Counted from the stretch's first letter, positions 2,732 through 23,367 are shown. The stretch is 64,000 nt of DNA from Pseudomonadota bacterium (GCA_013112535.1 JABFGI010000007.1:43592-107591); one strand, 5' to 3'. Numbers and translations are program-made. Notes: generated by a model not told the origin, from the letters alone.

Positions 2732-4894
2732 CTAAGAGACCAGTTTGTTAGTGTTGTCAGTACAATGATTAGATTCATATTCCTTCGCCCACAGATAAAA
2801 GTCACTTGCCGGCAATGGTCGCGAATAATAAAAACCTTGAACGACATCACATTGATGCTGTTTCAGGTATTCAAGTTGCTCTTTATCTTCCACTCCTTCC
2901 GCAATAACCTTATAGCCTAAATTATGTGCCAATGAAATTAACGCATTCACTATAGTTGCATCATCTTTATCATGCATAAGATCGTGTACAAAACTTTGAT
3001 CGATCTTTAATTTTGATATCGGCAAGCGTTTGAGATAGCTCAACGATGAATAACCTGTCCCAAAATCATCAATGGAAATACTGGCACCAAACTCCCTTAA
3101 TTCCTGAAGCACAGGCAAGACAATATCGACATCTTCCATTAATACCGACTCGGTAATTTCCAAATCCAGACGTGACGCTTCAAATCCGGCTAAACGTAAA
3201 TGTTTAAAAATATGCTCATTGATATTTTTATCGAGTAATGATGCCGGTGTAATATTTATAGCAACAGATTCCAGTTCAAATCCTTGCTTGCCCCAATCGG
3301 AAAGTTGTCTACAAGCTTCAGCAATAGCCCAATCCGTCATTGGCATTATTAAACCGGTGTTTTCAGCCAGGGGAATAAAATTTGTTGGAGGGACCAGCCC
3401 CATATCAGGATGATTCCATCTGATTAAAGCTTCTGCACCTGTAATATGTCCATCATCCAGACTAATTTTAGGTTGATAATAGAGTTGGAATTCTTCTCTT
3501 TCCAAAGCCTTGCGTAAACTTGTCTCCATGGATAATCTCTGGAAAGACTGTGCATTCATCGAATCGGTATAAAACCGATAACAATTCCGACCAGTTTCTT
3601 TTGCATTATGTAATGCTACGCTTATCTTTTTTAATAAACCTTCAACTTCATCGCCATCTTCAGGATAAACCCCGATACCAATACTTGCTGTCAAATGAAT
3701 TTCATTTCCAGGAATTTGAAATGGCTCATTAAATTCATGGTTAATCCGGCGCGCTATCTTCGCTGCCTCATCTGCATTATTAATTTCGTTAAGCATGATA
3801 ATAAAATTATCACCGCCAAAGTGGGCAACAAGTCCTGTCCTGAAACTGACTTCATCATCATTAATGCTTCCAGAATTTGAATTATCTATATCCTGAATAA
3901 TATTGCCTAGTCTCTGACTTGCCGCCAATAACAATTTATCACCAACGTCATGACCCAGTGTCGTATTAATACGCATGAATTTATCAAGATTAATATCTAG
4001 CAAGGCAAAATGACGATCATGCCGTTTTGAAGATTCGATTGTTTTTTTAAGCAGTCGTTTAAAAAACTGTCGATTAGGTAGACCGGTAACACTATCGTAA
4101 AAAGACAGGGTCTGAACTTTCTTTTCAGCGTTTCTTAAATCAGAAATATCCTGGAAGATACCAAAGATTATTCCTTCATTTATTTCATCATAATTATCAG
4201 TATCAATAATTTGTCTGATTTGTTTTTTAGAGCCATCATTAATCTTGATAGAATACTCAATACTGTGATTCGATTTTTCCAATGATGCATTATCCAGTAC
4301 ATTACGTACTCGATTTACATCATTTTTATCAATACAATTAATTAAATCTTCATGCGACATTACATTTGAATTGTTAATACCGAATATTTTGGTCACTTCA
4401 TCAGAGCAGAAAAACTGTTTTTTTTGTATGTCGTAGGTCCATTCACCCATTTTTGCAACTTTTTGAGCTGACAATAGTTGCCTTTCCCTGTTAGCCAGTT
4501 GCTTGGCTATTTCACTAGCGCGTAATGAGAATTGAACCCGGTGATTGAGTTTAGCCTGGTTAATGGGTTTTGTTATAAAATCGGTTGCGCCTTTATTATA
4601 GGCTTCATTAACCGAAGCCTGATCATCCTGCGCAGTCATAATCATAATTGGGATGTGTTTTTCAGAACTGAATGTTGATGCTTTTTCACAAAACTCGAAG
4701 CCATTCATCCCGGGCATATTTACGTCGGCCATGACCATATCGGGAGATTCAGCTTTTAATTTTTCAAGGCCAACAATACCATCAGCAGCCTCAATAATAA
4801 TATAATCCTGTTTTTCCAGCTTAAGTCTTAATATCTGGCGAATATCCTTATCATCATCAATAATTAATATCTTTTTTTTAGTTTCCTCTTCCAT
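2732..4894 (-). CDS. Response-regulator receiver / PAS / GGDEF(degenerate) / EAL c-di-GMP protein
   Basis: N-terminal REC (ILIIDDD...MADVNMPGMNG), a central PAS-like region, a GGDEF domain whose signature reads GGDNF, and a C-terminal EAL domain (EALIRW, DDFGTGYSSL, KIDQSF). Confidence 0.85.
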   Translation of the reverse strand: MEEETKKKILIIDDDKDIRQILRLKLEKQDYIIIEAADGIVGLEKLKAESPDMVMADVNMPGMNGFEFCEKASTFSSEKHIPIMIMTAQDDQASVNEAYNKGATDFITKPINQAKLNHRVQFSLRASEIAKQLANRERQLLSAQKVAKMGEWTYDIQKKQFFCSDEVTKIFGINNSNVMSHEDLINCIDKNDVNRVRNVLDNASLEKSNHSIEYSIKINDGSKKQIRQIIDTDNYDEINEGIIFGIFQDISDLRNAEKKVQTLSFYDSVTGLPNRQFFKRLLKKTIESSKRHDRHFALLDINLDKFMRINTTLGHDVGDKLLLAASQRLGNIIQDIDNSNSGSINDDEVSFRTGLVAHFGGDNFIIMLNEINNADEAAKIARRINHEFNEPFQIPGNEIHLTASIGIGVYPEDGDEVEGLLKKISVALHNAKETGRNCYRFYTDSMNAQSFQRLSMETSLRKALEREEFQLYYQPKISLDDGHITGAEALIRWNHPDMGLVPPTNFIPLAENTGLIMPMTDWAIAEACRQLSDWGKQGFELESVAINITPASLLDKNINEHIFKHLRLAGFEASRLDLEITESVLMEDVDIVLPVLQELREFGASISIDDFGTGYSSLSYLKRLPISKLKIDQSFVHDLMHDKDDATIVNALISLAHNLGYKVIAEGVEDKEQLEYLKQHQCDVVQGFYYSRPLPASDFYLWAKEYESNHCTDNTNKLVS

Positions 4895-4943
4895 AGTATT
4901 TATCGCTGGTCAGAAATCAGATTTGAATATTGATTCTACTTAA

Positions 4944-5324
4944 TTAAGCAACTTTATCCATATTGTCTTGCAAATATTTTTTTATTAATACATGAGATTG
5001 CGTAAAGATATCCTGTAATTCACCAAGCCTGTTTCTTGCAGAGTCAAGATCATTTTTAACCAGGCATTGCTGTATGTCTTCGGCAATGTTTCCTAAACAT
5101 ATTGCACCTACATTATTACCGCATGATTTAAACGAGAGTATTACATCTAACAAGTTATCTGACTCTTCTTCAAAAGCAAGGTGGATTTCCGACATTAAAC
5201 TAACGGACTCCTCAAGGAAATTCTGCAATACATCTGTAAATTCATCGTCCATAATTGATTTTAATTCTTTTAAAATTGATTCATCTATCAATGCAGAATT
5301 ACTTTTATTCTTTTTACTTTCCAT
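4944..5324 (-). CDS. Hpt-like four-helix-bundle protein (canonical His apparently absent)
   Basis: Size and helical pattern match Hpt domains. Motif region reads LSFKSCGNNVGA, where Hpt normally has HxLKGSxxxxGA. Lies directly upstream of the REC-containing gene. Confidence 0.5.
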   Translation of the reverse strand: MESKKNKSNSALIDESILKELKSIMDDEFTDVLQNFLEESVSLMSEIHLAFEEESDNLLDVILSFKSCGNNVGAICLGNIAEDIQQCLVKNDLDSARNRLGELQDIFTQSHVLIKKYLQDNMDKVA

Positions 5325-5447
5325 AGATTATGCCTCTTTGTAATTGTATCCTTACCCCCTATTGTTTATTTTTATACAATTCTCCTACGTCATTTAATAT
5401 GTCAAAAACAGCTTTTATACTGAGCTCTATTATTTACTTTTGCTTTT

Positions 5448-5987
5448 CTAGTTTAATACGCGGTGAGATATAGGACTACTAAATGAAATACTCCCTGTAT
5501 TAAATATTAGACTAAAATCATCATCTTCATTTGGTAATTGGTAGTGTTGCTTTGTGACAGACTTGTCAGAAAACTGATTAATAAAATTCAATAGTTCAGA
5601 GACCTGAATAAAATTTTCTGTCAGATATTCAAAAATAATCTCGTTTTCACCGTATTCGAGTGAAGCCAGTTTTTTATATGACTCAACTCCCATAGAGACA
5701 AACTCTTCAATAGCGACACCATATTCCTCACTTGCTTCTGGGTAAAAACCACATAACATTAGGCATTGATCTCCCAGGCGCTGTAATTTGTATTCGGTAC
5801 TATCAACGAATTTCTGCTGTTTTGTTTCAAAAAAGACAGCTTTATCTTCCTGTTCAATACGCATAAACAGTCTTATCAGGTAATTTTCAATACCTTGAGG
5901 CAACATATGACGGGCAATATGCTCGGCTTTGCCAATCAGGGCATGCCAGTGAGCTGTTTCAGGAACGCTAATTGATATCTGCTTCAA
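5448..5987 (-). CDS. Hypothetical protein, paralog of 33944-34588
   Basis: Shares a core block (LQRLGDQCLMLCGFYPE...FVSMGVESYKKLA) with LRKLGDTALFTSGFFAG...FISMGGGAYSFLA in the other ORF. No recognised domain. Confidence 0.6.
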   Translation of the reverse strand: MKQISISVPETAHWHALIGKAEHIARHMLPQGIENYLIRLFMRIEQEDKAVFFETKQQKFVDSTEYKLQRLGDQCLMLCGFYPEASEEYGVAIEEFVSMGVESYKKLASLEYGENEIIFEYLTENFIQVSELLNFINQFSDKSVTKQHYQLPNEDDDFSLIFNTGSISFSSPISHRVLN

Positions 5988-6132
5988 AATATTGCCTTAC
6001 TTTAATTATTCAGATACAAGATCTATCGGCGATTTGTTATTATTTCTTGAGATAATTATTGATAAAAACCGCTCCATACACATCATCAGTCACACACGGT
6101 ATACTTCCCGCCTCTTAAAATGGTTTAACTAG

Positions 6133-7056
6133 ATGTCACAAGATAATAAAGAAAAAGAAATTTACGGAACTTGTAATAGCTTCCAGGAACTCATTTTTGA
6201 GCTGCAAAAATACTGGTCTGCTCATGGCTGCACTATCGCGCAACCCTATGATATGGAAATGGGTGCAGGAACGTTCCATCCTGCCACATTCTTGCGTGCT
6301 ATTGGCCCTGAACCCTGGCGTGCGGCTTATGTACAGCCTTGTCGTCGCCCTACAGATGGTCGTTATGGCGAAAATCCGAATAGACTGCAACACTACTATC
6401 AATTTCAGGTATTGCTAAAACCGTCACCCGATAATATCCAGCAACTTTATCTGGATTCACTCAACGCGATAGGTGTCGACACCGACACCCATGATATTCG
6501 GTTTGTCGAAGATAACTGGGAATCTCCCACTTTAGGTGCCTGGGGACTGGGCTGGGAAGTCTGGCTGGATGGCATGGAAATCAGCCAATTTACCTATTTC
6601 CAACAAATTGGTGGTCTGGACTGCAAGCCGGTAACCGGTGAAATTACCTATGGTCTGGAACGTATTGCCATGTGTCTACAGGATTGCAGTAATATTTTTG
6701 ATCTTGTCTGGACTGAAAGTAATGGCCATAAAGTAACATACGGTGATCTTTATCATCAAAATGAAGTTGAAATGTCACGCTACAATTTTGAATTGGCTAA
6801 TACAGACTCGTTATTCGACTGGTTTGATACCTGCGAATCTGAATGTATGAACCTTATTAATCAAGATTTACCGTTACCTGCTTATGAAATGACAATGAAA
6901 GCCTCACACGCGTTTAATTTATTAGATGCGCGCGGAGCAATTTCAGTGACTGAACGACAACGTTATATTTTACGCGTCAGAACACTTTCGCATGCAGTAG
7001 CTCAAGCTTTTTATGAAAGCCGTGAATCACTGAACTTCCCATTATTAAAAAAATAG
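6133..7056 (+). CDS. glyQ: Glycine--tRNA ligase alpha subunit
   Basis: Highly conserved GlyQ sequence ([17 protein letters not shown]..., [22 protein letters not shown]). Followed by glyS. Confidence 0.97.
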
Positions 7057-7068
7057 AACGAATTTAAA

Positions 7069-9144
7069 ATGAGTAACACACAAAACTTGTTGATTGAAAT
7101 TGGTACGGAAGAATTACCGCCAAAGTCACTAAAAAAACTGGCCTCTGCTTTTAAAGATGAAATGATTAAATCTTTTAATGAAGAAAAGCTCAACTTTAGT
7201 GATGCAAACTGGTATGCCACACCGCGTCGACTTTCATTAATAATTAATAATCTTGAAGTCAAACAAGAAGACAAACAACAACAACGTCGCGGCCCTGCCC
7301 TTGCTGCTGCTTATGATGCCGAAGGCAAACCGACAAAAGCAACAGAAGGTTTTGCAAAATCCTGTGGCGTAAGCGTTGATCAATTGGAAAAACTGGAAAC
7401 AGATAAAGGCACATGGTTGGCTTTTAATGCTGTTATTAAAGGTAAGGAAACAACTGAACTGATATCTGCAATTATTGAAACGGCATTAGGACGGCTACCT
7501 ATCGCCAAACGTATGCGTTGGGGAGACAGTGATGTTGAGTTTGTACGACCAGTCAAATGGGTACTTATCCTGTTTGGTACTGACTATCTTGACTGTGAGA
7601 TTATGGGAATCACTTCTGGCAAAGAAAGTTTTGGACATCGTTTCCACCATCCTCATGCTGTATCAATAAACGCACCTGAAAACTATATTGAAACATTAAA
7701 AAAGGAAGCGCACGTTTTAGTAGACTACAATGAACGTCGCACCTTAATTGAATCTCAGGTTAATGCTATTGCTGAAGAAAATAATGGTATAGCCATTATT
7801 GATCCTGATTTACTCGATGAAGTAACTGCATTGGTTGAATGGCCAGTTAGTTTTGTCGGTGAATTCAATTCTGATTTTCTCAAACTACCGAAAGAAGTAT
7901 TAATTTCTTCTATGCAGGATCATCAGAAATATTTTCCCGTTGTTGATACAAAAGGTAACTTATTACCGTACTTTATCAGTGTTGCCAATATCGAAAGCAA
8001 GAACCCGGCATTAGTAAAACGTGGTAACGAGCGTGTGATACAACCTCGATTAAATGATGCTGCTTTTTTCTGGGAACGTGATTTAAAACACGGATTAGCA
8101 AATCATATTGAATCACTTAAAAAAGTGATTTATCAAAAACAACTGGGAACATTGTTTGATAAATCAGATCGTTTACAAAAATCAGTTCTCCATCTGGCTA
8201 AACCTTTAAATATTGAAATTGATCAAGCGAAGCGTGCTGCTGCATTATGCCTATGTGATCTACTCACTGACATGGTTTCCGAGTTCCCTGCTTTACAGGG
8301 AACGATGGGGCGTTACTACGCTGAAGCAGATGGTGAAGACGGTCAAGTGGCCATTGCTTTAGAAGAATATTATCAACCCCGGTTTGCTGGTGATGCCTTG
8401 CCAACATCAGCATTAGGTCAATGTCTGGCTATCAGTGAAAAAATCGATAGCCTTGTCGGTATCTTTGCTATTGGTAAAGCACCAACCGGAGACAAAGATC
8501 CGTTCGGTTTACGTCGTTCGGCAATCGGCTTATTGCGCATCATTATTGAGTGTAATCTCGATATTGATTTAAAAGAATTAATTACTAATGCTGCAGCAAA
8601 TTATCCGACTGATATTAATAGCAATAACTGTATTGATGATGTTTACCACTTTCTAATGGAACGATTACGTCGTTATTATCTGGATGAAGGCGTCAGCCCT
8701 GATACGTTTGAATCGGTATTAGCCATCAATACCAGTAAACCACTGGATTTTCACCATCGACTTACTGCTGTCACTGAATTTAGAAAACTGACTCAAGCTG
8801 AAAGTCTGGCTGCAGCCAATAAACGTATTAGTAATATACTGAAAAAGTCAGAGATTACTGACATAAAACAGGTGAATGATAATTTACTCACCGAAGAATC
8901 AGAAATCACATTGGCAAAATCATTAAATGAATACCAGAAACGTCTGGCTCCCATGATAGAAAAGCGTGATTATAAGTCAGCGTTAACTGAGTTAGCGGGA
9001 TTACGTGAGAACGTTGATAATTTTTTTGATAATGTCATGGTGAATTGTGAAGATGATGCGACTAGAATTAATAGACTGGCACTACTCAACAGTTTGAGTG
9101 CTTTATTTTTAAAAACAGCAGACATTTCTAAATTACAGAGTTAA
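7069..9144 (+). CDS. glyS: Glycine--tRNA ligase beta subunit
   Basis: Typical GlyS N-terminus (LLIEIGTEELPPK), 691 aa, placed immediately after glyQ. Confidence 0.97.
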   Translation: MSNTQNLLIEIGTEELPPKSLKKLASAFKDEMIKSFNEEKLNFSDANWYATPRRLSLIINNLEVKQEDKQQQRRGPALAAAYDAEGKPTKATEGFAKSCGVSVDQLEKLETDKGTWLAFNAVIKGKETTELISAIIETALGRLPIAKRMRWGDSDVEFVRPVKWVLILFGTDYLDCEIMGITSGKESFGHRFHHPHAVSINAPENYIETLKKEAHVLVDYNERRTLIESQVNAIAEENNGIAIIDPDLLDEVTALVEWPVSFVGEFNSDFLKLPKEVLISSMQDHQKYFPVVDTKGNLLPYFISVANIESKNPALVKRGNERVIQPRLNDAAFFWERDLKHGLANHIESLKKVIYQKQLGTLFDKSDRLQKSVLHLAKPLNIEIDQAKRAAALCLCDLLTDMVSEFPALQGTMGRYYAEADGEDGQVAIALEEYYQPRFAGDALPTSALGQCLAISEKIDSLVGIFAIGKAPTGDKDPFGLRRSAIGLLRIIIECNLDIDLKELITNAAANYPTDINSNNCIDDVYHFLMERLRRYYLDEGVSPDTFESVLAINTSKPLDFHHRLTAVTEFRKLTQAESLAAANKRISNILKKSEITDIKQVNDNLLTEESEITLAKSLNEYQKRLAPMIEKRDYKSALTELAGLRENVDNFFDNVMVNCEDDATRINRLALLNSLSALFLKTADISKLQS

Positions 9145-18457: not shown

Positions 18458-19556
18458 TTTCGTATTCCATTGGGAGTAAGATGCTGAAATAGGTATCACT
18501 TTCTTTGCGTTCATAATTAATTAAACCACCATGAGATTGAATAAGTTGTTGTGCAATAGATAAACCGAGCCCTGTACCTTCGGCACGTCCTGTGACCAAA
18601 GGATAAAATGCACCAGCTTCGATTTCGGGAGGGATGCCCGGGCCATCATCAATGATATCAACTTCGATGATATGTCTGTTTAAACGATGTTGAATCGTTA
18701 CCTGTCGCCGAATCCGTGTTCTTAATGTAATAACACCGTCATCATCAATTGCCTGAACGGCATTTCGAATAAGGTTTAATATTGCTTGTATAATTTGTTC
18801 ACGATCAGCCTTTATTGACGGAATACTCGGGTCGTAATCCTTCTTGAATTTCAATGGTTGTTCATTTTCTGCACAAACAACAGAAACGACATATTCCAGC
18901 ACCTCGTGAATATTCATCGCTGATTTAGCTGGCTGGTTACTTGTTGTCAACATACGGTCGATAAAGTGTCTTAATCGATCAGACTCGTTGATAATGAGTT
19001 GCGTGTATTCAAGCAAATCTTTATTTTCAAGTTCTCGTTCTAATAATTGAGCTGCACCACGAATGCCACCCAGTGGATTTTTAATTTCATGCGCCATACC
19101 CTGCACAGATTCTTTTGCTGCTTCCTGAACTGTTTGTTGATTTGCTTCTTGCATGACACGAACAAAAGCATCGGTATCAACTAACTCCACCAGAATTTCT
19201 TCCGCCGCTTCATTAACCAGAACCGGCGTAATCATGCAATCGACCAAAATAGTCTGGGCATTATTAAGATTAAGTTCCACCCCTCTTTCTATACAGGTAC
19301 TACCCGAATAAAGAGCACGTTGAATCGCCTCATAGAAGAATGATGAATTTGGCCAGATTTGTTTAGGTGTCATCCCTGCAACACGATTATGACTAACGGA
19401 TAGTAGCCCCTCGCCCGCACTGTTTATAAACAGTAACTGAAGGTCCTTTCCAAACAATAAGACAGCTGTAGCCAGATTTTCAATAATTCTTACTGGCGTT
19501 TCAGACAATGCATTCATAATCTGCTCATTATTGCACTGTTTTAGTGCGTATTTCAC
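18450..19556 (-). CDS. glnL: Nitrogen regulation sensor histidine kinase NR(II)
   Basis: PAS + H-box (MAHEIKNPLGGIRGAAQLL) + ATPase N/G boxes. Coupled to the ntrC homolog. Confidence 0.92.
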   Translation of the reverse strand: MKYALKQCNNEQIMNALSETPVRIIENLATAVLLFGKDLQLLFINSAGEGLLSVSHNRVAGMTPKQIWPNSSFFYEAIQRALYSGSTCIERGVELNLNNAQTILVDCMITPVLVNEAAEEILVELVDTDAFVRVMQEANQQTVQEAAKESVQGMAHEIKNPLGGIRGAAQLLERELENKDLLEYTQLIINESDRLRHFIDRMLTTSNQPAKSAMNIHEVLEYVVSVVCAENEQPLKFKKDYDPSIPSIKADREQIIQAILNLIRNAVQAIDDDGVITLRTRIRRQVTIQHRLNRHIIEVDIIDDGPGIPPEIEAGAFYPLVTGRAEGTGLGLSIAQQLIQSHGGLINYERKESDTYFSILLPMEYENE

Positions 19557-19669
19557 GTATCAATCCTTGCTAATAATTTATAGATTTTTTTATTTTAATG
19601 AAAACAATAAGTTAAAAAGAAATAAAAATATAATTCTTTCGATATTAGTGATTAGAGCAAGAAGCAGAC

Positions 19670-19677
19670 CAGTTGAA
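19670..19677. repeat. Left copy of the 8-bp target-site duplication CAGTTGAA
   Basis: Identical octamer at 22159-22166, each directly abutting a terminal inverted repeat. Confidence 0.8.
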
Positions 19678-19701
19678 GGTGTTTATCCCCTTGCGTCATG
19701 T
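19678..19701. repeat. Left terminal inverted repeat (IRL)
   Basis: See the mobile element entry; 19/24 match to the reverse complement of 22135-22158. Confidence 0.8.
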
Positions 19702-19748
19702 AGTTATTTATCATATACTATACCCATATAACATGTAAGGAGCCGTAA

Positions 19749-20618
19749 GTGTCTGATTTTACTATAATTGAGTTCTTTGATCGTTTCCCAACTGATGATG
19801 TGTGTCTTGACCATCTGTGGCTTGTCCGCTTTGGTGCTTCATATAAGTGCCCCAAGTGTTCTAAAGAGGGTAAATTCCACCGTGTTAAGAAACGCCCTGT
19901 TTATGAGTGCCAATGTTCTCATCAAGTCTCCCCTATGATGGGTACACCGTTTGCCAAGTCTCGTACTTCTCTGCGTAAATGGTTCTACGCTATGTATTTG
20001 TTCACGACTTCGCGTCATGGTGTGCCTGCAAAAGAACTACAACGTCAACTAGGTGTTACTTATAAAACCGCCTGGCGCATGGGTCACGAAATCAGAAAGT
20101 ATATGTCTGATGTTGATGGTGACGGTCAATACGGTGGTCACGTTGAAATGGACGAGACTTATATTGGTGGTAAGAAAAAACATAAAGACTCAAGCTACAA
20201 ACTAAACCGTAGTCACTTCAAAGATAAAACTATCGTTTACGGTATGGTAGAGCGTAACGGTAGTCTACAGACTTATGTAGTAGAAGACCGTAAACGTAAA
20301 ACAATACAAAAGCACGTTGATAAGAAAGTCGTTAAAGGCTCTATCATTAGTACTGATGAAGCTCCTTGTTATCAATTCTTAGGTAAAGCAGGTTACCAAC
20401 ATGGTTCTGTTTGTCATGAAGACTACGAATGGAAAAACGGTATTTACCACACTAATACTATTGAGGGTTTCTGGTCACGTTTAAAGAGTTCTATTCGTGG
20501 TACTCATATACATGTTAGTAAAAAGTATCTGCCTAACTACTTAGGAGAATTTGAGTACAGATATAATATGCGTAAAAGCCCTAAGTGGATGTTTGAAAGA
20601 CTGCTAGGCGCATTCTGA
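19749..20618 (+). CDS. IS1595-family (ISXO2-like) DDE transposase with N-terminal zinc ribbon
   Basis: CPKC...CQC zinc ribbon. Catalytic-region motifs VEMDETYIGG, ISTDEAPCY and NTIEGFWSRLK. GTG start 6 nt after an AAGGAG SD. Confidence 0.9.
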   Translation: MSDFTIIEFFDRFPTDDVCLDHLWLVRFGASYKCPKCSKEGKFHRVKKRPVYECQCSHQVSPMMGTPFAKSRTSLRKWFYAMYLFTTSRHGVPAKELQRQLGVTYKTAWRMGHEIRKYMSDVDGDGQYGGHVEMDETYIGGKKKHKDSSYKLNRSHFKDKTIVYGMVERNGSLQTYVVEDRKRKTIQKHVDKKVVKGSIISTDEAPCYQFLGKAGYQHGSVCHEDYEWKNGIYHTNTIEGFWSRLKSSIRGTHIHVSKKYLPNYLGEFEYRYNMRKSPKWMFERLLGAF

Positions 20619-20639
20619 TCTATAATAAATCTGTTAAAG

Positions 20640-20835
20640 AATTGGGAACACTGCCCCTTTCTACCTAACGGCGAAAGACGCAGTGTAATCCCCGGCGGAG
20701 TGGCAACTCCCACCGTTAGGAGGCCAAGATACTGCCCGTTATAACTAACCGACAGTTCCTCGTAACCTCCAAAGAACGGCCAACTAAGTAATTAGTGACT
20801 GTTCGAGGCCTCAACGGTCGCTCTTACGTGGAGAA
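20640..20835 (+). ncRNA. Candidate structured RNA or structured 5' leader (unclassified)
   Basis: No ORF in any frame, and visibly more GC-rich than its flanks. Complementary pairs: ACACTGC 20648-54 / GCAGTGT 20680-86; CCTAACGG 20664-71 / CCGTTAGG 20713-20 (interleaved with the first pair, so pseudoknot-like); GGAGT 20697-701 / ACTCC 20706-10; CCTCG 20758-62 / CGAGG 20804-08; ACTAA 20783-87 / TTAGT 20792-96. Strand inferred from the downstream terminator. Confidence 0.35.
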
Positions 20836-20840
20836 TACCC

Positions 20841-20927
20841 ATGTTAAAGCTAACGTTGAAAATTGAGTTGAGCTACAAGCAAGCAATATGTTTCATCCTT
20901 TTCTTGCTCACGCTTTACCCAATTTGA
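20841..20927 (+). CDS. Possible 28-aa hydrophobic peptide (MLKLTLKIELSYKQAICFILFLLTLYPI)
   Basis: GGAG at 20830-33, 7 nt before the ATG. Hydrophobic C-terminal half. A terminator hairpin starts 7 nt after the stop. Too short to be confident. Confidence 0.25.
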   Translation: MLKLTLKIELSYKQAICFILFLLTLYPI

Positions 20928-20933
20928 TTTAAC

Positions 20934-20968
20934 CCGTCCCCCGAAAGGGGGCGGTCTACTTCTTTTCT
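20934..20968 (+). terminator. Hairpin terminator (GAAA tetraloop) followed by a T-rich tract; may act on both convergent transcripts
   Basis: CCGTCCCCC-GAAA-GGGGGCGG (8 bp with one bulge), followed by TCTACTTCTTTTCT. Confidence 0.55.
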
Positions 20969-21108
20969 GTAGGTTTATTCTTTGCCATCCGGCCTAACAT
21001 ATTATCAAACTGCTTTTCATTGCCTTTTGACGGGTGTTCTTTGATGAAGCGTTTTAATTGCTTTTCGTCTTTAGCTTCTTCTAGGGATGTGTATTTACCA
21101 GTGGACAT
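20956..21108 (-). CDS. Possible 50-aa basic protein (MSTGKYTSLEEAKDEKQLKRFIKEHPSKGNEKQFDNMLGRMAKNKPTEKK)
   Basis: ORF below the track threshold, starting 12 nt after the ImmA-like stop on the same strand. No clear SD. Confidence 0.3.
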   Translation of the reverse strand: MSTGKYTSLEEAKDEKQLKRFIKEHPSKGNEKQFDNMLGRMAKNKPTEKK

Positions 21109-21120
21109 TTAAATGTATTT

Positions 21121-21588
21121 TTAACGGCTTAATTTTATACTCATTGCCTGCTTTGAAACCTGTAATCTTTCAGCCATAGCATCTACATTAAGCCCTTGAT
21201 CTTCATAATCAGTTACAAGCTGCTCCGGCATTAATAAATAAGCAGCAAAACTATTTGCTTCTGTTTCTTGGTGACTAGATATGCTTGTATTATTGTATTT
21301 TCCGCTAGTGCTTCTATACATTCTGTCTTCAGTAATGCCATCACCAATCAAAGGCCTATGAAGAATATAATGACCTAATTCGTGAGCTATAGTAAATCTT
21401 TGTCTAGTTAATCCATCAGCTTTGTTTATAGTGATTCTAAATTTACCATCGTCTTTTTTTTCTATTTGACCAGAGACATCATCTTCCATTGTTTCATAAG
21501 AAAGCTCTATTCCTAACTCGCTACATAGACCAACAACATCTACCGGAGCAGATTTTCTATAATCATCAATTAACTGGTATGTATTCAT
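21121..21588 (-). CDS. ImmA/IrrE-family (COG2856, peptidase M78) zinc metalloprotease
   Basis: HEXXH motif (AHELGHYILH) plus the downstream E..ANSFAAYLLMP block typical of ImmA/IrrE. Confidence 0.8.
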   Translation of the reverse strand: MNTYQLIDDYRKSAPVDVVGLCSELGIELSYETMEDDVSGQIEKKDDGKFRITINKADGLTRQRFTIAHELGHYILHRPLIGDGITEDRMYRSTSGKYNNTSISSHQETEANSFAAYLLMPEQLVTDYEDQGLNVDAMAERLQVSKQAMSIKLSR

Positions 21589-21597
21589 GATTAACTC

Positions 21598-22047
21598 CTA
21601 ATCGTTATCGTCTTGAGCTTGCATAATTTGATCCGCAATAGGATCATTTTCTGAAGCGTTTTTTGCTAGCTCCATATAACTATCAACAAACTCTGGTAAC
21701 TTTTCTTCTAAATCTTCTATAACTAACTTTTCAACATTGTCGTGAACATCACTTTCAAGTTTTTGCCAATTACTAACTACTGTGTCTTCACATCTTTTTA
21801 ATATCACTCTATAAACTGGCAAAGCTGCAAAAACCAATAAGGCAGCAACTATCGCAAGCAATAAAGATATAAAATCGAGCCGTCCTAATTGACCAGCCAC
21901 ATTCATTGAGTCGATTAATCTCTGGTCTCCGCCGTATATGTCGAGAACTAGCTCAGGCTTATAAAAATAATAAGTTGCGCCCCAAGTAACGCACATAATC
22001 AATGCGCCACAAGCTAATCCCGCTAGAAAAGCTATTGTTCCTTTCAT
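21598..22047 (-). CDS. Two-TM membrane protein with an acidic C-terminal cytoplasmic tail, unknown function
   Basis: TM1 is IAFLAGLACGALIMCVTWGATYYF and TM2 is FISLLLAIVAALLVFAALPVY. Stop lies 9 nt before the ImmA-like start. No SD before the ATG. Confidence 0.6.
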   Translation of the reverse strand: MKGTIAFLAGLACGALIMCVTWGATYYFYKPELVLDIYGGDQRLIDSMNVAGQLGRLDFISLLLAIVAALLVFAALPVYRVILKRCEDTVVSNWQKLESDVHDNVEKLVIEDLEEKLPEFVDSYMELAKNASENDPIADQIMQAQDDND

Positions 22048-22072
22048 AATTTATGATTGTAGAACAAATAAC

Positions 22073-22105
22073 AAAGTTCCGAAATAGTTCTCTTAAAGTT
22101 CTCCT
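22073..22105 (-). promoter_or_regulatory. Three tandem 11-bp direct repeats upstream of the cargo operon (candidate operator or iteron)
   Basis: Plus strand reads AAAGTTCCGAA / ATAGTTCTCTT / AAAGTTCTCCT, with the AGTTC cores exactly 11 bp apart. An inverted GAACA lies at 22062-66. A TACAAT -10-like hexamer (minus strand, 22056-61) sits 8 nt before the ATG. Confidence 0.45.
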
Positions 22106-22134
22106 TCAAATAAGATACTATATCAGCAGAAAGC

Positions 22135-22158
22135 ACATGATTCAATGGGATAGCCACC
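22135..22158. repeat. Right terminal inverted repeat (IRR)
   Basis: ACATGATTCAATGGGATAGCCACC; its reverse complement matches IRL at 19/24 positions. Confidence 0.8.
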
Positions 22159-22166
22159 CAGTTGAA
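22159..22166. repeat. Right copy of the 8-bp target-site duplication CAGTTGAA
   Basis: Identical to 19670-19677. Confidence 0.8.
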
Positions 22167-22216
22167 TAACTGATGAAATGGTTCGGAAAAGAATCCTCTA
22201 TTTATAAAAAGAAAAT

Positions 22217-22711
22217 TTACTTCGTGGCACGAAGCAAAGAAAAACTACTCGACGTTGAAATCAGTTTCTTACCACTGCCGTCGATGACACTGGCACTGAT
22301 ACTATGCGTCCCTCGGTCAACATTTTGTAACGAAACACTGCTACCGGAGCCAATTTCCTTGCCGTCCATTGAAATAATGATTTTATGCCCTGTTTGTAAT
22401 GCCGGCTCAAGTGAAAGAGAAATACTGACATTACCGTTATTACTCCTGATACCTGCACCATTTTCAGGACTGCTAACGGTTAAGCTTTCATATTGAAAAG
22501 CACTTTCTTCGGCTTGTTTTGGACTGGGTTTATATTTAGCTGGATTAGGGTTTTCTATTGTCTCTAATTTTTCAATTTTTATTTCTTCTGCTTCCTCAGA
22601 AGGTTTATCAGTAAAGATAATATTGCCGTCTTCATCCACTGACTTATAAACTGTTTCTGCGCCTAAACAGCCAACAAATACAACCAGAAGTAGAGATATA
22701 ATTAATTGCAT
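22217..22711 (-). CDS. Secreted DUF4124-like protein
   Basis: Signal peptide followed by the motif VYKSVDEDGNIIFTDKPS. C-terminal domain is paralogous to the next gene. Confidence 0.65.
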   Translation of the reverse strand: MQLIISLLLVVFVGCLGAETVYKSVDEDGNIIFTDKPSEEAEEIKIEKLETIENPNPAKYKPSPKQAEESAFQYESLTVSSPENGAGIRSNNGNVSISLSLEPALQTGHKIIISMDGKEIGSGSSVSLQNVDRGTHSISASVIDGSGKKLISTSSSFSLLRATK

Positions 22712-22749: not shown

Positions 22750-23367
22750 TTACAAGGTAGGAATTTTCGGGATTTCGGGAGGAGTGTCGCTACCGGCTGG
22801 AGGTGTTATAACAGTGTTCCCATTATTAACATTGTCTTTGGCCCTGTTTTTAAATAATTTTGACTCCTTTCGAAGATGGAAAGTTGTTTGTTTTGAACGC
22901 TTTAATATTTTCTTATTTTCATTCTCTATTAAAGCTGCAATAGTATGAGAACCACGATCAATTCCCTGTAAAGATAACTGCAATGACTTTCCTGAACTCA
23001 CCTCTTTACCATCCATAAAAAAAACAATCATATGTTTGTCATCAAGCTCAGGTGTCATTTCCAGGCTAATATTAACGATACCTTCGTTACTTCTGATAGT
23101 GGAATCATGTTCAGGTAAAGTAACTTCAAAACGAGTATAGTTTAATTCTTCCGGCGATAACTTAGTTGCCCGCCTATTATCCAGTCTTTTAGGCTTTGGT
23201 ATGTTTATCGTCTGTGCTTCATCTATTATTATCTCTTCAGCACCTTCGCTTGGTACATCGGAAAATATAATATTACCTTCTGCATCTCGTGTTTTATAAA
23301 CTGTTTCAGAAGCAACAGATACAAACCAAATAACACTCACAATAATCAAAAGCAGTTTAATTTTCAT
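22750..23367 (-). CDS. Secreted DUF4124-like protein (tandem paralog)
   Basis: Signal peptide followed by VYKTRDAEGNIIFSDVPS. C-terminal block IRSNEGIVNISL...DRGSHTI parallels IRSNNGNVSISL...DRGTHSI in 22217-22711. Confidence 0.65.
   Translation of the reverse strand: MKIKLLLIIVSVIWFVSVASETVYKTRDAEGNIIFSDVPSEGAEEIIIDEAQTINIPKPKRLDNRRATKLSPEELNYTRFEVTLPEHDSTIRSNEGIVNISLEMTPELDDKHMIVFFMDGKEVSSGKSLQLSLQGIDRGSHTIAALIENENKKILKRSKQTTFHLRKESKLFKNRAKDNVNNGNTVITPPAGSDTPPEIPKIPTL

Follow-up and report, generated by a model that had tools for sequence, protein, structure and literature searches.

The IS1595 family includes passenger-carrying insertion sequences (IS), which Siguier et al. (2009; cited in PMC8496243 and PMC3129680) defined as "transporter IS", and elements of the IS110/IS1111 type use a non-coding region to select their targets (PMC11187229). 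Here, we analyzed a 64-kb window of DNA from a Pseudomonadota bacterium (GCA_013112535.1, JABFGI010000007.1:43592-107591), which contains an IS1595-family element of 2,481 bp at positions 19,678–22,158. "The window" denotes this whole stretch, and all coordinates given without a locus name refer to it. With a DDE_Tnp_IS1595 transposase bearing a zinc ribbon, an 8-bp target duplication, short terminal inverted repeats (IR), and extra genes inside its ends, the element resembles the transporter IS. An ImmA-like gene and a gene for a protein with two transmembrane (TM) segments lie inside the IR, and in sister elements this slot is filled by unrelated genes. As a passenger-carrying IS1595 element it is of an already described kind. 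What appears to be new beyond this kind, and is a well-supported result of our comparison of related loci, is a strict homing to sigma-54-type promoters. To our knowledge, neither such a strict insertion nor a conserved convergent gene for a protein of 50 amino acids (aa), as found here, is part of the published description of the IS1595 family. Full-text searching of the literature, the coverage of which was incomplete, found no description of IS that target sigma-54 promoters.

The element is flanked by two copies of the octamer CAGTTGAA (positions 19,670–19,677 and 22,159–22,166). Directly inside these copies lie the left (IRL; GGTGTTTATCCCCTTGCGTCATGT, positions 19,678–19,701, plus strand) and the right IR (IRR; GGTGGCTATCCCATTGAATCATGT, positions 22,135–22,158, minus strand), each 24 bp long and identical to one another at 19 of 24 positions. 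A first-pass annotation, made from the sequence alone, had proposed exactly this arrangement of duplication and ends, and it was located in the sequence as described. A degenerate pattern spanning both IR arms matched just twice in the window and not at all in 100 shuffles, and the window contained no second copy of the element. For comparison, relatives were collected by scanning a single genome for each species (75 loci, transposases 39–79% identical), from a metagenome scan (80 loci), and through look-ups of individual homologs; these loci are referred to by L numbers below. In approximately 60 relatives both ends could be placed, and these elements share the terminal consensus GGYGATTATCCCCTTGACGTATGT, which is also that of the IRL, and perfect 8-bp duplications, in agreement with the earlier proposal that the ends are real. 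The relatives are 1.65–3.2 kb long, and no 1-kb transposase-only IS was found among them.

Genomes with an empty site, which the first-pass annotation had suggested to look for, were found by searching with the DUF4124 protein encoded next to the element. In the three related genomes compared (L158, L159, and L161), the site was uninterrupted and ntrB was the next gene, located ~210 nucleotides (nt) beyond the DUF4124 gene. The intergenic regions of all three aligned across the junction that is left when the element and one octamer are deleted. Because these alignments span the junction, the element is complete and its boundaries are correct. Apart from the window, the identical transposase was encoded by just two contigs, which come from two sequencing runs and match the window locus at 100% identity. 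Whole-element blastn searches against plasmids and phages returned trivial transposase fragments or nothing. Each transposase of the clade described below occurs on one to three contigs, and the window copy was assembled inside a 170-kb contig, which is consistent with one element copy per genome. Taken together, positions 19,678–22,158 are a complete, intact, single-copy, passenger-carrying IS1595-family IS, and the completeness claimed in the first-pass annotation is borne out by the intact transposase, the IR, the duplication, and the empty-site alignment.

The host DNA on the ntrB side of the insertion contains a sigma-54-type −24/−12 motif (TGGTCTGCTTCTTGCT, positions 19,656–19,671, minus strand), on which the first-pass annotation was silent. 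It fits the pattern TGG-N8-TTGC, in which the GG at −24 and the GC at −12 are canonically spaced, and is situated ~140 nt upstream of ntrB. The octamer ends with TG, the two bases that open the motif. Five related genomes, some carrying the IS and others lacking it, all had the motif in unchanged form. The closest sister of the window element, L078 (transposase 89% identical), was found on a 174-kb TARA scaffold of a related bacterium with the same neighboring genes. It sits at the orthologous position in the opposite orientation, with the octamer TCCAAATG and a partly different cargo, and at both loci the octamer directly adjoins an invariant GTCTGCTTCTTGCTCTAATCA. Downstream of the motif, the product of ntrC carries a Sigma54_activat domain, and a GCAC-N7-GTGC palindrome of NtrC-box type is located between the motif and ntrB (positions 19,533–19,547, ~100 nt downstream of the motif). 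The longest open reading frame (ORF) of ntrB starts with GTG at position 19,556 and crosses this palindrome (region 19,515–19,556). However, the start codons of the ntrB orthologs correspond to the ATG at 19,517 (MNALSETPV...). Hence, the real start of ntrB is probably 13 codons downstream of the GTG, which would place the NtrC-type box in the 5' leader.

We then examined the flanks of every element whose ends could be set. Fourteen independent elements showed NNNNNNTG directly followed by G-N8-xTGC in exact register. Eleven of these are located at the ntrB-ntrC promoter with the downstream gene identified (the window element and those at L078, L001, L065, L002, L003, L083, L163, L165, L166, and L167), and another one (L079) adjoins the ntrB-type motif TGGCCTGCTTCTTGC on a contig that is too short to contain the downstream gene. 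The remaining two elements are inserted at the cheW promoter (L004, TGGCACAGACCATGCAA; L169, TGGCATGGAGCGTGCAT), where the sites are near-consensus with TGGCAC-N5-ATGCA and TGGCAT-N5-GTGCA, respectively. The IRL faces the promoter in eight and the IRR in six of the elements, and the promoter points away from the element in all of them. The octamer spans approximately positions −32 to −25, if the second G of TGG is taken as G−24, and it ends in TG. Since the octamer is duplicated, the native sequence is kept on the promoter side. The motif was absent from the flanks of all ~50 elements that have more distant transposases, and its chance expectation at a fixed register is ~5e-4 per element. In neighbor-joining trees, the 14 targeting elements form one clade. 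Two elements with 68–69% identical transposases (L168 and L175) fall outside this clade and are inserted at AT-rich sites without the motif. This comparison shows that members of the clade always use the same insertion point, namely the upstream edge of promoters that, judged by their sequence, are of the sigma-54 type.

The best explanation of these data, which we regard as highly probable, is that the window contains a passenger-carrying IS1595 element whose clade inserts at a fixed upstream edge of sigma-54-type promoters, with the recognition step attributed to the transposase. As the duplications show, the transposase makes cuts with an 8-bp stagger. It places them where the promoter begins on its upstream side, always at the same nucleotide, and the promoter stays intact. 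The usual target is the ntrB-ntrC promoter, and one sub-branch uses the cheW promoter instead. Most likely, the transposase reads the promoter DNA directly. The target site would represent a conserved and harmless "safe harbor", a property that would also explain the presence of one copy per genome. The residues that distinguish the clade are situated in the catalytic core of the transposase (residues 128–134, 174, 181, and 222–224, among them Y128, G129, Q174, R181, C222, and E224) and in its C-terminal tail (residues 276–283), and not in the zinc-ribbon/helix-turn-helix (HTH) region, which presumably binds the element ends. This distribution favors direct recognition.

The strongest alternative is that targeting is mediated by a protein already bound at the site. 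The transposase or the 50-aa protein encoded by the element (hereafter orf50) could dock on the closed complex of the sigma-54 holoenzyme and direct the cuts to its upstream edge, similar to Ty3 at genes transcribed by Pol III. Sigma-54 holoenzyme occupies promoters stably without firing. Moreover, the ntrB-type (TGGYCTGNTTYTTGC) and cheW-type sites (TGGCACAGACCATGCA and TGGCATGGAGCGTGCA) share only the GG and GC read by sigma-54, at canonical spacing. On the other hand, genomes possess many sigma-54 promoters, yet 12 of the 14 insertions occurred at ntrB-type sites. This concentration on one promoter sequence suggests a specificity beyond that of sigma-54 and favors direct recognition. Direct recognition is also favored by the clade member at L177, which is inserted at TGG-N8-TTGG in a phage-like contig; having GG in place of GC at −12, this would be a poor sigma-54 site. 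Docking through orf50 faces the additional difficulty that this gene is also present in subclades with other targets and can therefore not be the specificity factor. We thus consider holoenzyme docking possible but rather unlikely.

Much less probable is a scenario in which the elements insert at random and selection keeps those copies that happen to lie at a harmless spot upstream of a promoter. The site is indeed intergenic, the promoter is left intact, and sister subclades are found in AT-rich intergenic DNA. However, selection on random insertions cannot yield a register that is exact to the single nucleotide in 14 of 14 cases. Two different promoters were hit in this register. The ~60 nt between the upstream stop codon and the promoter would offer many equally harmless positions.

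Even lower is the probability that there is no targeting at all and that the elements descend vertically from one old insertion in front of ntrB, which some lineages have since lost. This would agree with the occurrence of all 11 elements with an identified downstream gene at one type of locus in related Gammaproteobacteria, to which the element at L079, with the same motif and too short a flank, may be added. Yet the elements occur in both orientations at the identical nucleotide position, and two of them reside at the cheW promoter in the same register. In addition, the octamer copies are identical within each of the 14 genomes and differ between the genomes, a pattern that old insertions would not preserve. 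The hosts most closely related to that of the window element (NtrB 87–88% identical) have an empty site. In contrast, hosts whose NtrB proteins are only ~50% (51–56%) identical harbor elements with transposases that are 71–82% identical. Based on the different octamers and orientations, the empty sites in the nearest hosts, and the incongruent identities of transposase and NtrB, we conclude that the insertions were independent. Homologous recombination at a shared locus is disfavored as well, because it could neither invert an element nor shift it to cheW.

The least credible proposal, which can effectively be rejected, is that the non-coding insert of the element specifies the target in the manner of the guide or bridge RNAs of IS110/IS1111; although the element is site-specific and bears a strongly structured non-coding region of 315 nt, this insert is absent from every other co-targeting element, the transposase is a DDE and not a DEDD enzyme, and the longest match between insert and target was 9 nt (p ~0.36), no better than in shuffled controls. 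When the elements were each compared internally with their respective targets, the longest matches likewise did not exceed those to shuffled targets. A mimicry of the IS end by the target was also rejected, as the identity between flanks and IR remained flat at ~25% for all offsets and both orientations, inside and outside the clade.

Several points weigh against homing of this clade to sigma-54-type promoters as the best explanation. Two clade members deviate from the pattern: L177 is located at the near-cognate site mentioned above, where the register depends on whether an 8- or a 9-bp duplication is assumed, and at L084 the two flanking octamers differ from each other and the motif is degenerate. 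Furthermore, nearly all cases stem from one type of locus, so that what is recognized may be the sequence of the ntrB promoter and not the sigma-54 class. The status of the sites as sigma-54 promoters is itself deduced from the consensus, its conservation, the adjacent gene for an NtrC-type enhancer-binding protein, and the palindrome resembling an NtrC box. The assignment to a subgroup is tentative as well: the GGTGTTTAT terminus resembles the "ggnnatTAT" of ISNwi1, which would point to the ISNwi1/ISNwi1+ subgroup. Finally, the roles proposed below for orf50, the cargo, and the non-coding insert are tentative.

The L177 element (positions 4429–7438 of IMGVR_UViG_3300036770_003971) lies in its phage-like contig beside terminase-like ORFs, which were read from the sequences and not searched for. 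Phages may carry such elements between hosts.

Specific targets are also reused in other subclades of this IS group. The elements at L008 (positions 4921–7265) and L041 (positions 4921–6768) adjoin, in opposite orientations, AAGTTTTA directly followed by TTGTC(T/A)TTGCC(G/A)GATAAC. In a set comprising L087, L094, and L013/L093, the octamers of L087, L094, and L013 are located between inverted CTTT/AAAG arms. Octamers of the type ACGTCAAG (AGGTCAAG in L033) were found beside TTACCCGGAACACTCATA or a TAACCC variant at L031, L033, L117, and L120. Target selectivity may be general in this IS group and differ by branch.

The transposase of the window element (289 aa, positions 19,749–20,618, plus strand) consists of an N-terminal zinc ribbon, an HTH region, and a DDE core. 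It matched PF12762 (DDE_Tnp_IS1595; 3.4e-40, model positions 3–153 of 153), PF12760 (Zn_ribbon_IS1595; 1.1e-7, above the cutoff), and the NCBIfam model NF033547 (transpos_IS1595; 6.4e-63, score 212.5 with a cutoff of 75 bits). All three matches agree with the family named in the first-pass annotation, and the ISXO2/IS1595-type DDE transposase with its zinc ribbon, the IR, and the 8-bp duplication are the features of this family. The first-pass annotation had also described the zinc ribbon and three catalytic motifs as intact. The zinc-ribbon cysteines C34, C37, C54, and C56 and the catalytic D135 are invariant among 46 relatives, which supports the first part of this statement, whereas D203, N236/E239, and K246 are putative catalytic residues assigned by their motif position alone.

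The core of the clade consists of the two 24-bp IR, the 289-aa transposase, and orf50 (positions 20,956–21,108, minus strand), and the transposase and orf50 are the only conserved proteins. The small gene is always convergent with the transposase gene and usually overlaps its stop codon. Searches with tblastn yielded 42 matches to orf50, distributed over 40 related loci; their consensus is MSxGKYLSLEEARKxxKLxRFAKEHPSxGDxKxFDxLLxRMAK. Among 1.84 billion representative proteins, 100 clusters of relatives were found, and all but one of them (602 aa) contain small proteins of 34–119 aa. In the AlphaFold (AF2) model, orf50 forms three short helices with a mean predicted local distance difference test (pLDDT) score of 79.5. 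No relatives were detected in Pfam, among the sequences in the Protein Data Bank (PDB), or among the PDB folds searched with Foldseek. From its distribution, orf50 is a conserved accessory gene of the whole IS clade and not cargo. The convergent overlap with the transposase gene suggests a regulatory function.

Cargo is found in two variable slots, one between the transposase gene and orf50 (slot 1) and the other between orf50 and the IRR (slot 2). While slot 2 always contains one to four genes, slot 1 is empty in most elements and harbors ORFs in some. The first-pass annotation had regarded ~1.5 kb of extra DNA inside the ends as cargo. The extra DNA is present, and its protease and membrane-protein genes as well as the non-coding insert are indeed variable among the relatives, but the 50-aa gene has to be taken out of the cargo as a conserved accessory gene. 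The opposite-strand ORFs of the window element encode 149, 155, and 50 aa. A candidate sigma-70-like promoter (TTGAAT-17-TATAGT with an extended TG, positions 22,117–22,145, minus strand), recognized as a consensus match only, points into the cargo operon and overlaps the inner part of the IRR.

The 155-aa cargo protein (positions 21,121–21,588, minus strand) is a zinc metalloprotease of the ImmA/IrrE family (Peptidase_M78) with a HELGH motif, which matched PF06114 with 3.3e-19. Its best model in the defense libraries was PADLOC capP (6.1e-31), which was matched over model positions 12–150 of 242. The Peptidase_M78 signature with HExxH is shared with the proteases of the ImmA/ImmR, IrrE/DdrO, and CapP/CapH pairs. 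However, these pairs include an HTH (XRE-type) repressor encoded next to the protease, whereas the partner in the window element is a small two-TM protein, and the C-terminal part of the CapP model is missing. Library scans found no match to an HTH family in the 149-, 50-, and 37-aa neighbors of the protease, and orf50 had a sub-threshold match (17.5 bits) to the non-HTH N-terminus of TIGR02684. Without an HTH partner, the protease departs from the pairing that defines ImmA/ImmR and CapP/CapH. Since no such repressor accompanies it, the protease probably acts on the membrane protein encoded beside it or on a protein of the host.

This putative membrane protein (149 aa, positions 21,598–22,047, minus strand) is hydrophobic in two segments near its N-terminus and acidic in its C-terminal half. 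It was not assigned to a family by any of four libraries and is a near-orphan with only three homologs among 5.8 billion proteins. Apparent counterparts in the elements at L065 and L078 showed no detectable homology to it. At L174 (positions 909–2131), a homolog (47% identical) is followed by a Peptidase_M78 gene, orf50, and the convergent transposase gene, in an element that belongs to a different IS subclade and lacks the non-coding insert. The recurrence of the pair together with orf50 and a transposase argues that the protease and the two-TM protein travel as a module, and IS lineages seem to exchange such cargo modules with one another.

To survey the cargo more broadly, 73 cargo ORFs from relatives were scanned against Pfam and PADLOC. 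The families found were PemK/MazF, Fic/DOC, SocA/Panacea, DUF3800, GIY-YIG, and ImmA, in addition to a trypsin-like protease, TPR proteins, and several of the PADLOC candidate defense (PDC) families. Most of the 73 ORFs had no match in either resource. A cargo ORF in the relatives L002-L075 matched PDC-S42 with 8e-102, and others matched PDC-S45, PDC-S23, and PDC-M59B. The cargo of the window element might be a selfish (addiction) or a defense cassette composed of the protease and the membrane protein, and this is the weakest part of our account.

In the window element, slot 1 is occupied by the non-coding insert (315 nt, positions 20,619–20,933). It contains no ORF and makes up most of the ~340 nt without a credible ORF between the stop codon of the transposase gene and orf50. 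Its G+C content is ~47%, compared with 38% for the whole window. Relative to dinucleotide shuffles, the insert is strongly structured on both the plus (−110.6 kcal/mol, z = −4.8) and the minus strand (−140.5 kcal/mol, z = −7.5). Between the insert and orf50, a G+C-rich hairpin (CCGTCCCCCGAAAGGGGGCGG, positions 20,934–20,954) scored as terminator-like on the plus strand. Rfam searches of the region, the whole window, and the insert alone (E-values up to 10) yielded nothing except a chance CRISPR-repeat match on this hairpin, and an ARAGORN search also found nothing. No homologs of the insert were detected by blastn and nhmmer among all compared loci, and exact-word scans of IMG/VR returned none or chance 16–17-mers. 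At L078, a 92-aa ORF takes the place of the insert in slot 1. The insert may encode a structured RNA without known relatives, or else it is the remnant of a passenger that has decayed. Slot 1 stretches of 500–600 nt without called genes, dissimilar to the insert of the window element, were also seen at L166 (positions 5380–5993) and L169 (positions 5350–5857); the latter contains a short ORF that by eye resembles one in the slot of L002.

On the other side of the element, two tandem DUF4124 paralogs are located at positions 22,217–22,711 and 22,750–23,367, and this pair precedes ntrB in several related genomes. The first DUF4124 gene ends in a terminator-like hairpin (positions 22,216–22,238, minus strand) ~50 nt from the insertion point.

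The clade provides a natural experiment, in which the same 8-bp window was hit independently and in both orientations in hosts with only ~50% identical NtrB proteins, and a sister branch switched its target to another sigma-54 promoter. In their behavior, the elements resemble carriers, present in one copy, that swap small toxin-antitoxin- or defense-like cassettes at a conserved chromosomal address. These results are relevant for the movement of defense genes and also for genome annotation, as orf50 and the element boundaries were unannotated in the public records seen. A far-reaching interpretation, which we offer tentatively and do not expect to hold in full, is that this IS1595 clade has evolved a homing to a class of promoters: it would read the −24/−12 signature directly or through the bound holoenzyme, integrate at approximately −32 to −25, and, with conserved sigma-54 promoters serving as safe harbors, shuttle interchangeable defense or addiction cassettes among distant bacteria and phages. 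Should the holoenzyme be what marks the site, a transcription-initiation complex would for the first time be seen to guide a bacterial transposon, and bacteria would have their own equivalent of Ty3.

Locus-specific integration with single-nucleotide precision is apparently achieved here by one small DDE transposase, whereas such precision is normally linked to multi-protein (Tn7) or RNA-guided systems (IS110 and CRISPR-associated transposons, CAST). With Tn7 and Tn7-like elements, which insert at attTn7 through TnsD/TniQ, the clade shares the single copy, the fixed distance from a conserved host sequence, the lack of damage to the host, and a variable cargo that often includes defense genes. 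However, Tn7 uses a heteromeric transposase, the ATPase TnsC, and a target selector, duplicates 5 bp of the target, and integrates in a single orientation. The clade described here possesses none of this machinery but one 289-aa DDE protein and a 50-aa protein, and it generates an 8-bp duplication and inserts in both orientations. In its behavior, the window element resembles a safe-harbor transposon, but it does not belong to the Tn7 family. The IS110/IS1111 elements are similar in being small, site-specific IS with a sizeable non-coding region, and they are guided by a bridge RNA or seekRNA (PMC11187229). They differ in that they encode DEDD recombinases and use an RNA guide complementary to target and donor, whereas the window element encodes a DDE enzyme and carries an insert that is not conserved among the co-targeting elements and has no complementarity to the target above chance.

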